Both the position numbers and the translations under genes were made by a program. Below, in pieces: positions 41,990-55,206 of a DNA stretch of 64,000 bases. The notes below the pieces were generated by a model that ran no database searches, was not told the DNA's origin, and saw only the letters and a list, made by a program, of their open reading frames with translations. Positions within the stretch are counted from its first letter, which is position 1, and every line of letters starts with the position of its first letter. The DNA comes from Verrucomicrobiota bacterium (lineage in GTDB: Bacteria; Verrucomicrobiota; Verrucomicrobiia; Chthoniobacterales; UBA6821): assembly GCA_021413925.1 (NCBI GenBank), contig JAIOPL010000023.1:13640-77639 (forward strand), read 5' to 3'.

Positions 41990-42562
41990 TCACGGCCCCT
42001 TGTTGAGCAGTTTCCTGACGTCGTCGATGGAGAGTCCCTTGCGGATGGCATCTTCAAGATGGGGATTGTTGTCGAGTGCTCCCTGCGTCTTTCCCTTGAG
42101 GGAGATGTTTTGTGTCGGGAAGTCCCCCTTGGAGGAGTAGGGGCTTATTTTATCAAGATCCGTGAAGTTTTTTGTTTTGAAATCCTTGGAATCGAATTTC
42201 TTTCCGGCATCGGTATTCGCCTTCTCGAGATTTCCCGAAAGCTTCTTTTGGGGAAAAAGATGATCGCCGAGCCAGCTCTTCATTCCGGAAACGAATCCCT
42301 TGGTCTCGTACGAGCGGGAGCCATATTCCCGTGCACCGTAGTAGTCCTTGGTCGCGAAAGCCTTGTCGTAAGGGGTTCCCTTCGAATTGAACACCTTCCC
42401 TTGAAAGGTGCTTTGCCTGCTACGGTCGGGATGCATCATTCGTTCCAGCATCCCCTGCTCTTTAGGTACTTCATCGGGGGAGGCCCTTACGGTTGCGGAA
42501 GAGAACACTATTAAAACGCTCCCGGCGATCAGGAGCATGACCAGACGAGACAGGGAAAACAT
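41990..42562 (-). CDS. secreted hypothetical protein, Lys-rich
   Basis: From ATG 42562 the N-terminus is MFSLSRLVMLLIAGSVLIVFSSATVRA, a signal peptide. The longer track ORF would run through the rpsD terminator. Confidence 0.6.
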   Translation of the reverse strand: MFSLSRLVMLLIAGSVLIVFSSATVRASPDEVPKEQGMLERMMHPDRSRQSTFQGKVFNSKGTPYDKAFATKDYYGAREYGSRSYETKGFVSGMKSWLGDHLFPQKKLSGNLEKANTDAGKKFDSKDFKTKNFTDLDKISPYSSKGDFPTQNISLKGKTQGALDNNPHLEDAIRKGLSIDDVRKLLNKGP

Positions 42563-42664
42563 TCCGCAATCGTAGGAGCGGAACCCGAAGCCTGCAAGAG
42601 GGCTTGAAGGGGCTCGAAGAATCACTGATACGCAGCCGCAGCAGAAAGCACCCGTAAGAACGCA

Positions 42665-42703
42665 CAAAATAAAAAAGCCGCCGCGGATTTCTCCGGGCAG
42701 CTT
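42665..42703 (-). terminator. rho-independent terminator after rpsD
   Basis: The minus strand reads AAGCTGCCCGG-agaaat-CCGCGGCGGCTTTTTTATTTT, a 9-bp stem with one bulge followed by a U-tract. Confidence 0.75.
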
Positions 42704-42725
42704 TTTTGTAAGGACTAATGAGTGA

Positions 42726-43337
42726 TTAGCGAGAATAGAGCTCAACGACGAGCTGCTCGTTCACAACAGGATTGATCTCCTCGCGGGTCGGGATACGGAC
42801 CATCTTGCCGCTCAGGGCTTCCTTGTCGACAAGCAGCCAATCCGGCGGCTCGACGATCTGGGTCTGCTCCAGGCCGCGCAGGGCGAGGCGCTTGGAACCA
42901 TCCTTGGGACGTACGGAAATAGCATCGCCAATCTTGATAGTGGCGGAGGAGATGTCGCACTTGCGGCCATTCACGGCGACGTGGCCGTGGGACACCATCT
43001 GGCGTGCAGCCGAACGAGTCTTCGCGAAGCCCATGCGGTAGACGATATTGTCGAGGCGCCTCTCAAGGAGCTGGAGCAGGATAAGTCCGGTGATACCACG
43101 GGTCTTCAGAGCGGTCTCGAAGTAGCGGCGGAACTGGCGCTCAAGCACACCATACTGGAAGCGGAGTTTCTGCTTTTCGGCAAGCGCGGTGCCGTACTCG
43201 GAAATCTTGCGGCGTGACCCCTTCGGGCCGTGCATGCCGGGAGGATAGGGCTTGTGCTCGAAAGCACGGGCGGATCCGGCGAGAAGAACGCCGTAACGGC
43301 GGCTGACTTTGGTTTTGGGTCCAGTGTAACGGGCCAT
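42726..43337 (-). CDS. rpsD: 30S ribosomal protein S4
   Basis: MARYTGPKTKVSRRYG... Confidence 0.95.
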   Translation of the reverse strand: MARYTGPKTKVSRRYGVLLAGSARAFEHKPYPPGMHGPKGSRRKISEYGTALAEKQKLRFQYGVLERQFRRYFETALKTRGITGLILLQLLERRLDNIVYRMGFAKTRSAARQMVSHGHVAVNGRKCDISSATIKIGDAISVRPKDGSKRLALRGLEQTQIVEPPDWLLVDKEALSGKMVRIPTREEINPVVNEQLVVELYSR

Positions 43338-43387: not shown

Positions 43388-44017
43388 TTAAACGCGGCGC
43401 TGTTTCGGAGGACGGCATCCGTTATGAGGAACAGGAGTCACGTCTTGGATGATGGAGATTTCAAGTCCGATGGCCTGCATGGCGCGGACTGCCGATTCAC
43501 GACCGGAGCCGGGCCCCTTGACGCGAACCTCGACTTCCTTGAGGCCATGGCCCATGGCCTGACGGCAGGCATCCTGAGCGACCATCTGAGCAGCATAGGC
43601 TGTGCTCTTACGGGATCCCTTGAACCCCATCTTGCCGGCGCTGGACCATCCAAGAACGGCACCGCGCATGTCGGTGACGCTGACGATGGTATTGTTGAAA
43701 GTAGCCTGAACGTGGGCGATCCCATGAGTGATGTTCTTGCTACCCTTGGCCTTGACGATCTTGGGCGGCTCGATCGGGTCATCGAGATTGAAACTGATGG
43801 CTGCGGCCGGAGCGGCTTCCTCAACTTTCTTCTCCTTGCTCTTCTTTACCTTAGGCTTCTCGGCCTTGGCGGGAGCAGCAGTCTCGGCGGTAGCCACTGG
43901 AGTTGAAGCCTCAACGGAAGTCTCTGAAGCGGACTCGGAAGGATGATGGGCTTTGGTCTCTTCGCTACGTGCAGCGTCTTGGGAGAGGCCTTCGGATTCT
44001 TTGTTTTCTTCGGACAT
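43388..44017 (-). CDS. rpsK: 30S ribosomal protein S11 with an N-terminal extension of about 80 aa
   Basis: The canonical core begins near ...[26 protein letters not shown]. There is no in-frame ATG, GTG or TTG between Met1 and the core. Confidence 0.85.
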
Positions 44018-47997: not shown

Positions 47998-48522
47998 TCA
48001 GGAAGCCTTGACCGCTTTTCTCGGAGCCGCCTTCAGAGTTGCCCTGCTGGCGATCTTGGTCTGGCGCTCACGGATAACAAGCGAACCTCCGGCAGCCTCA
48101 AGCTTCTCTTTGGCGGCTGCACTCGATTTGTCCACCTCTACGGTGAACTTCTTGGTGATTGTTCCGCGGGCAAGCAGCTTGATCCCGTCATTGCTTCCAT
48201 GAACGAGTCGAAGGGAGCGGAGTGCTGCCTCATCGATCTTAGCGCCGGACTCGAAACGCTCTTCGAGAGTATCGAGGTTCACGACGGCGTAAACGGGCTT
48301 GAAGTCAAAGTTATTGAAACCGCGCTTAGGAAGTCGGCGGATAAGGGGCATCTGACCACCCTCGAATCCAAGACGGACGCTGCCGCCGGAACGGGCTTTC
48401 TGACCCTTGTGGCCGCGACCGGAGGTCTTTCCGTGGCCGGAGCTTTCGCCGATACCGAGACGCTTCTTGCGGTGCTTGGCACCTGGGCGGGGAGCGAGAT
48501 TATGAAGTCGCATGGTTGTCAT
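47998..48522 (-). CDS. rplO: 50S ribosomal protein L15
   Basis: GKTSGRGHKGQKARSG motif. Met4 is an alternative start. Confidence 0.9.
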   Translation of the reverse strand: MTTMRLHNLAPRPGAKHRKKRLGIGESSGHGKTSGRGHKGQKARSGGSVRLGFEGGQMPLIRRLPKRGFNNFDFKPVYAVVNLDTLEERFESGAKIDEAALRSLRLVHGSNDGIKLLARGTITKKFTVEVDKSSAAAKEKLEAAGGSLVIRERQTKIASRATLKAAPRKAVKAS

Positions 48523-48596
48523 TCGAGAATAATGGTTGGGCTTGGGGCTTGAGTTAGGCTTGAGCTGCTGTGTTTAGCTGTTTCCCTCTGCTTGCC

Positions 48597-49151
48597 TTAA
48601 GCAGCAACTGGAACCGCTGCTTCCGGCGTAGGCACCTTCTTGCCTCGCAGTTTCATGATTTCGCTGCGGGGGCGTAGGCTGGTAAGAGCGGCAAGGGTTG
48701 CCTTGACCACGTTGGAGTGGTTGCTGGATCCGAGTGACTTGGCAAGCACGTCGCGGACACCGACCGCCTCGAGGACGGCGCGCACACCACCTCCGGCGAT
48801 GACCCCGGTACCGGGGGATGCAGGTTTAAGAAGGACGCGTCCACCTCCGAACTCGCCGAATGTCTCGTGAGGAATCGTCGTTCCCTGGATCGACACAGGA
48901 ACCATGGCCTTGCGGGCGGCGTCGGAGCCCTTGCGGATGGCTTCACTGACCTCGTTGGCCTTACCGAATCCGATACCGACACGACCCTTCATGTCACCTG
49001 TGACGATGAGGGCGCTGAAGCTGAAACGGCGACCACCCTTGACGACCTTGGCGCAACGGTTGATGAAAACGACCTTCTCGATCGTGTCCTTGGGTGTATC
49101 GTCTGCGGGCTTATCGCGGCGTGGTCCGCGTTTGGGGCGTTTGTCATCCAT
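48597..49151 (-). CDS. rpsE: 30S ribosomal protein S5
   Basis: [28 protein letters not shown] chose the start at ATG 49151 (MDDKRPK), 7 bp after the rplR stop. Confidence 0.9.
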
Positions 49152-50094: not shown

Positions 50095-50493
50095 TTACCA
50101 GATGTAGGCGAGAAGTTCTCCACCGACTTTCTGCTTGCGGGCCTCATGACCCGAGATGACTCCACGTGATGTGGAGATAATGGAGATGCCGAGACCGCCG
50201 AGCACGCGGGGGATGTCCTCGCTACCGACATAACGACGGAGTCCGGGGCGGCTGATGCGGCGAAGTCCAGCGATCGCAGGAGTCTTTCCCACATAACGGG
50301 GGCGGATCCTGATGCGCGGATGCGTCTCCTTGTTGTCGAGTTCGTACTCCTCGATATAACCCTCGCGCTTGAGGATGGCGACGATGTCGCTCTTGATCTT
50401 GGAATAGGGAACGAAGAACTCAACCTTCTGCACGCTTACGGCGTTGCGGACACGGGTGAGAAGATCGGCGATGGGATCGGTCAGTGCACTCAT
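50095..50493 (-). CDS. rpsH: 30S ribosomal protein S8
   Basis: DPIADLLTRVRNA... Confidence 0.95.
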   Translation of the reverse strand: MSALTDPIADLLTRVRNAVSVQKVEFFVPYSKIKSDIVAILKREGYIEEYELDNKETHPRIRIRPRYVGKTPAIAGLRRISRPGLRRYVGSEDIPRVLGGLGISIISTSRGVISGHEARKQKVGGELLAYIW

Positions 50494-53675: not shown

Positions 53676-54146
53676 TTAGTCTTTGATTTCGACAGTCTCA
53701 GTGACCACCTCAACTACTGGAGCAGAAGATGCGGCTTCATTCATGACTTTTGGTTTGTCTGAGGACTTGGAAGAGCGAGTAGACTTAGGCTTATCAGCAC
53801 GGCGAACGATCGGCACCTCATCAGTCAAGACGATACGGATATGGCTGTTACGCTTACGGACCGGGCCGGAACTGCCACGAGCCTTCGGGCGCATGCGCTT
53901 GATGGTCGGAGCCTCGCCGATGACAGCCTCCTTGATCACAAGGAGTTCGGGACGGATATTGTTGTTGTGCTCAGCGTTGGCGATCGCACTCTTGAGAGTC
54001 TTGGCGATCAGGGGCGCTGCTTTCTTCGGAATGAATGCAAGTTGCTGAAGGGCATCAATGGCTGGAAGACCCTGGATTTCACGGGTGACCTCGCGTGCCT
54101 TGAAGGCTGATATTTTCGCGTAGCGGTGGGTGGCGATGACTTGCAT
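53676..54146 (-). CDS. rplV: 50S ribosomal protein L22 (with a C-terminal extension of about 45 aa)
   Basis: YAKISAFKAREVTREIQG...MRPKARGSSGPVRKRNSHIRIVL. Confidence 0.9.
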   Translation of the reverse strand: MQVIATHRYAKISAFKAREVTREIQGLPAIDALQQLAFIPKKAAPLIAKTLKSAIANAEHNNNIRPELLVIKEAVIGEAPTIKRMRPKARGSSGPVRKRNSHIRIVLTDEVPIVRRADKPKSTRSSKSSDKPKVMNEAASSAPVVEVVTETVEIKD

Positions 54147-54152
54147 GAGTAA

Positions 54153-54905
54153 TTAGCGTGTGGTGTCGATACGGAGTGTGTCGCCTGACCTCACGGACTC
54201 GGCGGGATTGACAATATTCTGAACAATGGCACCGCTGATCGCGTCGCGGACATCCACGACGCGGACGGAGGCGACCTGGCGAGTGCCGCGCCATACTTGG
54301 AAAGGCATGCCAGTCTTGACTCCCTGGCGGGAACCCAGATTTGCGACGACTAGGGAAAGATCGGGCTTCACGTCCACAACAGTCCCGGTTGTAAGATCAG
54401 CTCCTGATGTTGCTAGAAGATCCTTCTGGCGGTTAAGGAAAGCGGAGCTGGATCGGAGCACTTCCTCGACCTTCATGCGGGCCATTGGGTCAATGCCTTC
54501 GGAGCTCTTGAGCAGTTCCATAACCGATTCGGTCATAGCGCTCAACTGGTCCCGCGAAGCATCATTCTGCTTCTGAAGAAGGCGCATGTCGCGGACAGCG
54601 GCCAGAAGGCGCGTGCGAAGGTTTTCTATCTCCTTGTCGGCAGGAGCGATTCCCAGAGCCTCGATGCGCTCGTTCAGCTCGTCGGACTTCCGCTTAAAGA
54701 GTTCGGACTCTCCATTGGCAATCGCCAGACTCTCCGTGAGCCCCTTGATAGAAGCCTCAGAAAGGATGAGCTTCTCGCGAAGTGCATCGGAAGATCCACC
54801 GCCGTTCGCGTTCAAATTCTGCGCAAGCGCGGCGGCAACCGGAAGCCCGAGAAGGGCAACGGCTGTCACAGCGGACAATTGGCAGGAATGGTGAATGGCG
54901 GACAT
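54153..54905 (-). CDS. secreted coiled-coil protein with a C-terminal beta-rich domain, inserted between rpsS and rplV
   Basis: From ATG 54905 the N-terminus is MSAIHHSCQLSAVTAVALLGLPVAAALAQ, a signal peptide. About 150 aa of heptad-like helix follow, then TGTVVDVKPDLSLVVANLGSRQGVKTGMPFQVWRG...VRVVDV...GDTLRI. The gaps are 22 bp to rpsS and 6 bp to rplV. The upstream extension in the track ORF overlaps rpsS. Confidence 0.75.
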   Translation of the reverse strand: MSAIHHSCQLSAVTAVALLGLPVAAALAQNLNANGGGSSDALREKLILSEASIKGLTESLAIANGESELFKRKSDELNERIEALGIAPADKEIENLRTRLLAAVRDMRLLQKQNDASRDQLSAMTESVMELLKSSEGIDPMARMKVEEVLRSSSAFLNRQKDLLATSGADLTTGTVVDVKPDLSLVVANLGSRQGVKTGMPFQVWRGTRQVASVRVVDVRDAISGAIVQNIVNPAESVRSGDTLRIDTTR

Positions 54906-54927
54906 CAGGTTGATGGGAATAAAATTG

Positions 54928-55206
54928 TTATTTGGTGACCTTGGCAGTGTGTGAACCGTGCTTCTTGAAGATGCGGGTCGGGGAGAACTCGCCGAGCTTG
55001 TGACCGACCATGTTCTCTGTGACAAAAACCGGAATGAAGGAGCGCCCGTTGTGAACGTTGAAAGTATGTCCGACGAAGTCGGGAGTCACCGTGGAACGGC
55101 GAGACCAGGTCTTGATAGGCTTCTTGACATTGCCTTCGTTGAGTTTGTCGATCTTCTCGAGGAGTTTCCACTCCACGAACGGGCCTTTTTTGAGTGAGCG
55201 TGACAT
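54928..55206 (-). CDS. rpsS: 30S ribosomal protein S19
   Basis: [12 protein letters not shown]...[23 protein letters not shown]. Confidence 0.95.

Follow-up and report, generated by a model that had tools for sequence, protein, structure and literature searches.

The DNA considered here, referred to as the window, is a stretch of 64,000 nucleotides (nt) from a Verrucomicrobiota genome (assembly GCA_021413925.1, contig JAIOPL010000023.1). Its subject is an open reading frame (ORF) at 54153..54905 on the minus strand, named X in the following. X lies within a ribosomal cluster that is encoded on the minus strand throughout and reads S7, EF-G (elongation factor G), S10, L3, L4, L23, L2, S19, X, L22, S3 and, past S3, L16, L29, S17, L14, L24, L5, S8, L6, L18, S5, L15, SecY, Adk and Map. 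The order L2-S19-L22-S3 is among the most stable gene orders in bacteria. An earlier sequence-only reading, made without database searches, had placed a same-strand ORF between rpsS and rplV, with gaps of 22 bp and 6 bp, inside the string S10-L3-L4-L23-L2-S19-X-L22-S3; the gaps agree exactly with the coordinates, and the gene string is as described. The elements of the junction are, in the direction of transcription:

54928..55206, minus strand: rpsS (ribosomal protein S19, 92 residues), an ORF directly upstream of X; orthologous genes match Pfam Ribosomal_S19
54906..54927, minus strand: rpsS-X spacer and translation initiation region, 22 nt; G-poor, without Shine-Dalgarno motif, unstructured
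54153..54905, minus strand: coding sequence of X, 250 residues, ATG start, stop codon included; conserved, under purifying selection and always between rpsS and rplV
54819..54905, minus strand: predicted Sec-type signal peptide, codons 1-29 (MSAIHHSCQLSAVTAVALLGLPVAAALA, cleaved before Q), called from hydrophobicity and the ALA-Q layout
54411..54794, minus strand: predicted helical region, codons 38-165, from the AlphaFold2 (AF2) model and conservation
54168..54386, minus strand: predicted six-stranded beta-barrel of the FlgT-C / TsaP type, codons 174-246, from predicted local distance difference test (pLDDT) values of 94-98 and Foldseek
53676..54146, minus strand: rplV (ribosomal protein L22, 156 residues), which begins 6 nt past the stop codon of X

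In a mechanical ORF list, the frame of X runs on into rpsS as far as a TTG at 55025; close homologues share the ATG at 54905 as their start and open with 'MSxxxHxCQLSA'.

X occupies one slot in Chthoniobacterales and Verrucomicrobiales

A homology search retrieved 574 homologues of X at E<=1e-3. The best 120 of these are all 233-283 residues long and at least 59% identical, and the named ones among them are entered as 'hypothetical protein' from Chthoniobacterales or Verrucomicrobiota metagenome-assembled genomes (MAGs). Twenty-eight close homologues align without frame problems and share 66 invariant columns, which are distributed across the helical and beta regions. In a profile search of 1.84 billion cluster representatives, 970 clusters were found at E<=1e-3, 396 at <=1e-10 and 117 at <=1e-30, mostly of ~260 residues and matched over the full mature length. 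The ratio of non-synonymous to synonymous substitution rates (dN/dS) of X against seven relatives (dS 0.14-1.5) is 0.07-0.16, compared to 0-0.10 for L2, S19, L22 and S3 in the same genome pairs. As estimated from these alignments, purifying selection on X is strong, and somewhat weaker than for most of its neighbours. The sequence-only reading had made its case dependent on conservation and on a coding signal in relatives; the homologues and profile clusters establish the former, and the dN/dS values mark X as a real gene.

The gene order around X was surveyed in a genome scan with one genome per GTDB species, which yielded 116 stretches encoding a relative of X, of which 78 distinct loci were retained. 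Their titles name Chthoniobacterales, 'Spartobacteria', Terrimicrobiaceae, Chthoniobacter or generic Verrucomicrobia, the exceptions being one MAG labelled Proteobacteria and one entry labelled only 'bacterium'. The order, read by tblastn with L2, S19, X, L22 and S3 of the window, is L2-S19-X-L22-S3 in every one of the 78 loci long enough to judge, with identities of X down to 42%, and the S19 genes preceding X in related loci are 82-100% identical to S19 of the window. Clustering of the best 135 full-length representatives gave 18 groups, and contigs were checked for six divergent groups, in which X is 30-38% identical to that of the window. Five of these six have S19 upstream and L22 downstream; in the sixth, L22 lies downstream and X stands at the contig start. 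One divergent group belongs to the Verrucomicrobiaceae, and its S19 falls into the same 90% cluster as S19 of Prosthecobacter fluviatilis. The isolate genome GCA_042655725.1 (Prosthecobacter fluviatilis by its S19 accession; Verrucomicrobiales) carries a 259-residue gene between rpsS and rplV that has no Pfam match and aligns to the X family profile with an hhalign probability of 100% (E 8.4e-45); close homologues of that gene from other Prosthecobacter entries (Prosthecobacter spp.) carry the name 'hypothetical protein' without exception.

The related loci, 84 in total and from independent assemblies, include the 78 species-representative ones of the Chthoniobacterales type, those of the six divergent clusters and the Prosthecobacter locus. 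S19 lies upstream in 80 of the 84 and L22 downstream in 83, the misses being at contig ends; the loci were recovered through X itself, such that genomes having lost X would escape this count. The place of X between rpsS and rplV is thus constant in Chthoniobacterales and Verrucomicrobiales at the least, the genome scan having used patterns of the Chthoniobacterales type. An assembly artefact at the junction, which the sequence-only reading had named as a possible flaw, is ruled out by the recurrence of the same order in independent assemblies, and its attribution of the protein to this lineage holds for Verrucomicrobiota, the relatives being Chthoniobacterales and the family extending to Verrucomicrobiales.

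Across the related loci, the identity of X follows that of L2 (Spearman 0.83, p 2e-21), which argues for a single ancient insertion with subsequent vertical descent. The insertion is old, since L2 of the most distant carriers is only 63-66% identical to L2 of the window. Between the end of the X match and rplV, the median distance is ~30 nt. A metagenome protein of 239 residues (P0164) consists of the first ~58 residues of S19 joined to X from 'LRMEALGL' on; a deletion or a chimera made in assembly is its probable origin, and the join is an independent sign that rpsS and X are adjacent.

Export signal and predicted structure

The sequence-only reading had divided X into a signal peptide, about 150 residues of heptad-like helix and a beta-rich C-terminal domain. 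The signal peptide is borne out by the conserved layout of the N-terminus. In X of the window, the h-region AVTAVALLGLPVAAALA is followed by A-L-A and then Q, and hydrophobicity reaches a peak of 2.40 (Kyte-Doolittle, 12-residue window). A peak of at least 1.8 near the N-terminus is present in 109 of 127 diverse members, mostly with K/R ahead of it and AxA or AQ behind; the letters vary, the layout is kept, and members without the peak look N-terminally truncated. The predicted n-region and h-region and the small residues at -3 and -1 are those of a Sec-exported substrate of signal peptidase I. To judge by this pattern, X is exported via the Sec pathway, with predicted cleavage at AALA-Q; signal peptide and cleavage site were called by rule and by eye, not by SignalP or another dedicated predictor. 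Mature X is acidic (median isoelectric point (pI) 5.75), compared to pI 9.6-11.4 for the ribosomal proteins of the operon. Just past the predicted cleavage site, many members carry a 'SSLTD', 'SLSDxE' or 'RSLTDFE' motif, which is weak in X of the window ('GSSDALRE', residues ~30-45, nt ~54771-54818) and may have a part in sorting, modification or docking.

A first AF2 model built with the 28 close homologues (pLDDT 69.8, predicted template modelling score (pTM) 0.33) was superseded by a run with 138 diverse sequences, which reached a mean pLDDT of 86.3, with 85-98 in the helix cores and 94-98 in the barrel. The model predicts helices at residues 38-84, 89-134 and 140-165, followed by six strands within residues 174-246. 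The two long helices of ~46 residues each are joined at G85, which is conserved in 94% of the family; this near-invariance between long helices fits a tight hairpin turn. The helical region carries two family motifs, LxESLAxANxEAExFR in helix 1 and RLLxAVxDL in helix 2, the strongest positions being L56..S59-L60-A61..A63-N64..E66..E68 and R99-L100..A103-V104..D106-L107. Their distances from the G85 turn, 14-30 and 12-25 residues, respectively, are similar, and the motifs would therefore face each other in an antiparallel hairpin and form one conserved patch. It is the lengths of the modelled helices, together with the G85 turn, that suggest the antiparallel geometry. Thus, the long helix of the sequence-only reading survives as a helical region of ~130 residues, which has the look of an antiparallel hairpin rather than of a single rod, and its beta-rich domain reappears as the six predicted strands, with near-invariant G191, G195, G199, P201, R206, R220, G225, G241 and D242. 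The X proteins P0093 and P0096 (loci L004-L006; 282-283 residues) have a 39-residue insertion between helices 2 and 3, which looks like an internal duplication of an 'ESVMxLLKTSxxID' segment; in this subgroup, the helical region therefore tolerates a change in length.

The sequence-only reading could not assign X to any family, which remains correct insofar as no family is reached at threshold; for the C-terminal domain, the Foldseek comparison nevertheless gives a recognisable barrel of the FlgT-C / TsaP type. A single-sequence search of X of the window against Pfam, NCBIfam and PDB gave nothing at threshold, only coiled-coil noise and a 22-residue FlgT_C fragment (PF16538; 17.0 bits, E 0.0082, residues 186-207 only, below the gathering cut-off of 27 bits). 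Among the 138 members, 35 have sub-threshold matches to FlgT_C, the best at E 7.5e-5. In Foldseek searches against PDB, FlgT scores best (8z5n_0, E 4.5e-5; 3w1e, E 6.6e-5; 23% identity), and the predicted model has the small beta-barrel or beta-roll fold of FlgT_C; the first, weaker AF2 model gave the same picture. The N-terminal barrel of the F1/V1-ATPase alpha and beta subunits is matched in many entries at E ~1e-3 (root-mean-square deviation 2.4-3.1 over 76-80 residues). The X family profile matches the C-terminal region of TsaP with E 4.6e-3, and a barrel-only profile gives motif-level matches only, to TsaP (E 4.6e-3) and to a MexC-like protein (E 4.4e-4 for the whole sequence, 0.042 for the matching stretch of 35 residues). 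According to the entry description, 8z5n_0 is a chain of a cryo-EM entry of the flagellar LPHT ring, FlgT being a component of the flagellar basal body, and the FlgT-C-like domains of TsaP bind to the outside of the PilQ secretin barrel (bioRxiv 10.1101/2020.05.29.123786). These contexts suggest that the barrel is a module of periplasmic proteins that decorate outer-membrane ring complexes.

Pfam searches of the window protein and of the 138 members revealed no match to FlgT_N or FlgT_M, LysM, Peptidase_M23/LytM, HlyD or the membrane fusion proteins (MFP), and X does not qualify as an adaptor of the latter kind. Nor did Pfam and NCBIfam give a match of X to a ribosomal or RNA-binding family, and X does not qualify as a ribosomal protein. 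Its genomic context is always the S10 operon, not a flagellar one. By these comparisons, X is an unannotated family that belongs to none of FlgT, TsaP, MreC, EnvC, Lpp, HlyD/MFP or the ribosomal proteins. Automatic names of its homologues in public databases are 'hypothetical' or contradictory (Lpp, FtsB, chromosome segregation ATPase, NADH dehydrogenase subunit G); the annotation of the Joint Genome Institute (JGI) calls a few of them 'murein-binding lipoprotein Lpp'. The signature protein of the PVC (Planctomycetes-Verrucomicrobia-Chlamydiae) superphylum was rejected as an identity for X: that protein (CT421.2), which we take to be small and basic, is a different hypothetical protein, and the paper on it mentions neither S19 nor L22.

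Expression signals and the remaining ribosomal cluster

On the minus strand from S10 to L18, neither a sigma-70-like promoter nor an intrinsic-terminator-like site was detected, the counts being at or below shuffle expectation. At the gathering score, Rfam gave no family in the whole window, hence no known ribosomal leader or attenuator. From S10 to L18 (49159-58040, minus strand), each of the 18 genes, including X, has a G-poor leader that lacks a Shine-Dalgarno motif, so that translation initiation in this region appears to be Shine-Dalgarno-independent. The initiation region of X (54880-54960, minus strand) has a minimum free energy of -4.6 kcal/mol (z = +1.47 compared to shuffles), i.e. 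it is less structured than these. Codon usage was scored as the synonymous log-likelihood ratio between the ribosomal genes and 18 other long genes of the window, with the following results:

Ribosomal genes (leave-one-out): mean +0.039, standard deviation (sd) 0.034, range -0.048 to +0.084
18 other genes: mean -0.068, sd 0.041, maximum -0.003
EF-G: +0.021
X: +0.006

The score of X exceeds those of all 18 non-ribosomal genes and falls within the ribosomal range. X is presumably co-transcribed with the S10 operon, as suggested by the tight spacing, the lack of promoter- or terminator-like sites and the neighbour-like leaders. Its abundance may likewise approach the ribosomal level, judging from its position and from a codon usage that is intermediate between ribosomal and other genes and nearer to the ribosomal ones. 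Codon usage, leaders and the tight spacing in relatives support co-transcription and substantial expression without proving them.

Several further features were observed in the ribosomal cluster. The spc operon lacks rpsN (S14), L5 (50500..51123) abutting S8 (50095..50493), with the same adjacency in the relative L001; it also lacks rpmD (L30), L15 following directly after S5 (48522-48597). Past rpsD, there is no rpoA or rplQ; instead, a 251-residue ORF without Pfam match (41990-42745, minus strand) is found, which has an internal Met followed by a signal-peptide-like segment (MFSLSRLVMLLIAGSVLIVFSSATVRASP) and is followed next by a class-I Tyr/Trp-tRNA synthetase gene. Judged by its sequence, this ORF may join X as a second gene of the ribosomal cluster that is lineage-specific and codes for an exported protein. 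S11 (43388-44017, minus strand; 209 residues) matches Pfam S11 on residues 99-208 and has an acidic, Lys-rich N-terminal tail of ~95 residues. Low-complexity tails are also present at the C-terminus of L22 (53676-54146, minus strand; 156 residues) and, rich in Lys and Ala, at the ends of L24 (51161-51523, minus strand) and L5 (50500-51123, minus strand).

Possible roles of X and comparison with known systems

The reading that we favour, and to which we give about an even chance, is that X acts throughout the class as an adaptor or scaffold in the periplasm and is produced in proportion to ribosomes, with a barrel that docks on an envelope complex and a hairpin patch that binds a partner or self-assembles. 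X could act in the following manner: The gene would have been inserted once between rpsS and rplV before the split of Chthoniobacterales and Verrucomicrobiales and inherited vertically since, and X is probably a protein specific to the Verrucomicrobiae lineage. It would be transcribed on the S10 operon mRNA and translated, like its neighbours, from an unstructured leader without Shine-Dalgarno motif; on this mRNA, its synthesis would follow ribosome synthesis up and down. After export and cleavage of the signal peptide, X may serve as a structural adaptor in the periplasm. The barrel may dock on an envelope partner, much as FlgT and TsaP decorate outer-membrane ring complexes with their FlgT-C-type domains, and the conserved patch in the middle of the hairpin (LxESLAxANxEAExFR and RLLxAVxDL) may bind a second partner or mediate self-assembly. 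The probable gain from the location would be an envelope component supplied in fixed proportion to growth capacity, for which secY in the neighbouring spc operon is a long-known precedent.

A more specific version, which we consider fairly improbable, sees in X a major envelope protein of the Verrucomicrobiae comparable to Lpp, i.e. a strut or tether in the periplasm, present in a copy number that the S10 mRNA couples to that of the ribosomes. The hairpin, with ~46 residues per arm, would then set a spacing of ~7 nm, and the FlgT-C-like barrel would anchor X to an outer-membrane or peptidoglycan-associated partner. Such a protein would couple the building of the envelope to growth capacity by direct genetic means, which is undescribed in other bacteria.

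A number of points weigh against the adaptor or scaffold that we favour. The function, location, partners and abundance of X are all predictions, and the neighbourhood of X holds only ribosomal genes, so that no partner can be named. The signal sequence, if it remained uncleaved, would be an anchor and place X in the inner membrane. The overall pTM of the model is 0.49, and the hairpin shape and the facing of the two motifs are deduced from secondary structure. The similarities to FlgT_C, TsaP and MreC are all sub-threshold, and small beta-barrels recur elsewhere, for example at the N-terminus of the F1-ATPase. The promoter and terminator patterns sought are sigma-70 and intrinsic-terminator consensus patterns and may not fit the host phylum. 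Finally, the codon score of X lies at the low end of the ribosomal range, ~1 sd under the mean, and its translation rate could therefore be well below that of its neighbours.

Two of the rival explanations keep X in the envelope and assign it to a known type of machinery. As an MreC-like morphogenetic scaffold of the inner membrane, X would retain its signal anchor, dimerise through its helices and recruit peptidoglycan synthases with the barrel. MreC structures are indeed among the top Foldseek matches (2j5u, E 5.8e-4; 7eft, E 2.6e-3), with alignments of 101-109 columns that exceed the barrel of ~75 residues, and MreC shares with X the order of membrane segment, coiled coil and beta-barrel. 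However, the Pfam signal (PF04085) is far under threshold and confined to two of 138 members (E ~0.004), FlgT outscores MreC, and most N-termini of X end in AxA or AQ, as in cleaved signal peptides. Moreover, X has a single barrel against the two of MreC, and while mreC is grouped with mreB and mreD, X is never found outside the ribosomal operon and is not adjoined by mre genes at any locus examined; this reading is therefore held to be improbable. As an EnvC-like regulator, X would plug its hairpin into an ABC (ATP-binding cassette) transporter of the FtsEX, MacB or LolC type and pass ATP-driven movement on to a cargo of the barrel. EnvC uses a periplasmic two-helix hairpin in the known EnvC-FtsX structures, and the hairpin of X with its mid-hairpin patch resembles it; within PDB, the X profile scores best with M23 proteins of the EnvC type, taken from FtsEX-EnvC complexes (8tzk_E, E 7.9e-4; 8hd0_E, E 0.017). 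These matches, however, span only the signal peptide and the first helices or coiled coil of X, a composition prone to false positives, as vimentin and BST2 score nearly as high. X also lacks a LytM/M23 domain, and no ABC transporter gene adjoins it, which makes such a regulator quite improbable.

The other two rivals concern the position of X within the operon. X may be a passenger that landed there by chance, with low and growth-independent output, and is kept because its loss or move would harm the expression of rplV. It evolves faster than its neighbours, with the exception of L22 in one comparison, and in codon usage it ranks low within the ribosomal range; furthermore, small insertions into this operon cluster are known in Gammaproteobacteria and Bacilli, where they are generally the first step to operon disconnection (PMC8046335). 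A passenger is nevertheless unlikely, considering that X has kept both its place and its reading frame down to carriers of 63-66% L2 identity, that its spacing to rplV stayed tight, and that a dN/dS far below 1 and near-invariant motifs indicate selection on the protein itself. A clean deletion of 0.75 kb should also be easy, yet none is seen among the loci found, which by their recovery via X would not include losers. Alternatively, X could be a cytoplasmic, lineage-specific ribosome-associated protein or assembly factor, the hydrophobic N-terminus of which is no export signal. Its position amid ribosomal genes is what speaks for such a factor. The classical signal-peptide layout, with a physico-chemical pattern that is kept while the letters vary, the acidic pI, the lack of a match to any ribosomal or RNA-binding family and the periplasmic nature of the closest folds (FlgT, TsaP and MreC; the cytoplasmic N-terminal barrel of the F1/V1-ATPase being the exception) render it very improbable indeed.

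Whichever role applies, X stands in the middle of the gene string across at least two orders of Verrucomicrobiae, and its insertion provides a simple synapomorphy and taxonomic marker for the lineage. X and its relatives make up a protein family that lacks annotation and comprises several hundred sequence clusters, and the position of the gene suggests an envelope component supplied in a fixed ratio to ribosomes. Since the family occurs in a genome assigned to the cultured Prosthecobacter fluviatilis, the question is open to ordinary experiments. To our knowledge, PVC-group bacteria are without Lpp; an X that is both structural and abundant would supply a missing piece in the picture of their periplasm's organisation. 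Literature searches found no paper describing an insertion between S19 and L22 or the X family. What is new is a gene for an exported protein that is stably kept in the S10 core throughout a lineage, and a protein that combines known modules in a new way.

Among the proteins that share these modules, FlgT resembles X in the fold of its C-terminal barrel and in being exported to the periplasm; in contrast to FlgT, X has neither the N and M domains nor a flagellar locus and possesses an additional helical region of ~130 residues. TsaP (PDB 3jc8), which associates with the secretin of type IVa pili, likewise has C-terminal domains of the FlgT-C type, whereas the LysM domain at its N-terminus, which binds peptidoglycan, and its two barrels differ from the single barrel and helical hairpin of X. 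MreC has a membrane-targeting N-terminus, a coiled coil and a beta-barrel in the same order as X and differs by its two barrels, its uncleaved transmembrane anchor and its mreBCD operon context. In EnvC, the amidase activator and partner of FtsEX, long periplasmic helices follow a signal peptide as in X; EnvC carries a LytM/M23 domain that X lacks, and the likeness may be compositional. Lpp, the most abundant protein of E. coli, is a functional analogue at best, as a small helical periplasmic envelope protein. X has no lipobox Cys (the only Cys of the window protein is C8, ahead of the h-region, and the cleavage region is AALA-Q) and no conserved C-terminal Lys (the last residue is Arg in Chthoniobacterales and shows no conservation elsewhere); it is also four times longer and bears a barrel.

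At the level of the operon, the closest parallels are secY, adk and map of the spc operon, present in the window as L15-secY-adk-map downstream of the cluster around X. They have non-ribosomal functions, including protein export, and are co-transcribed with ribosomal genes, as X presumably is. They are, however, located at the distal end of the spc operon, near-universal and of known function. X, by comparison, occurs in a single lineage, lies amid the S10 core string and gives an exported product rather than a cytoplasmic or translocon protein.

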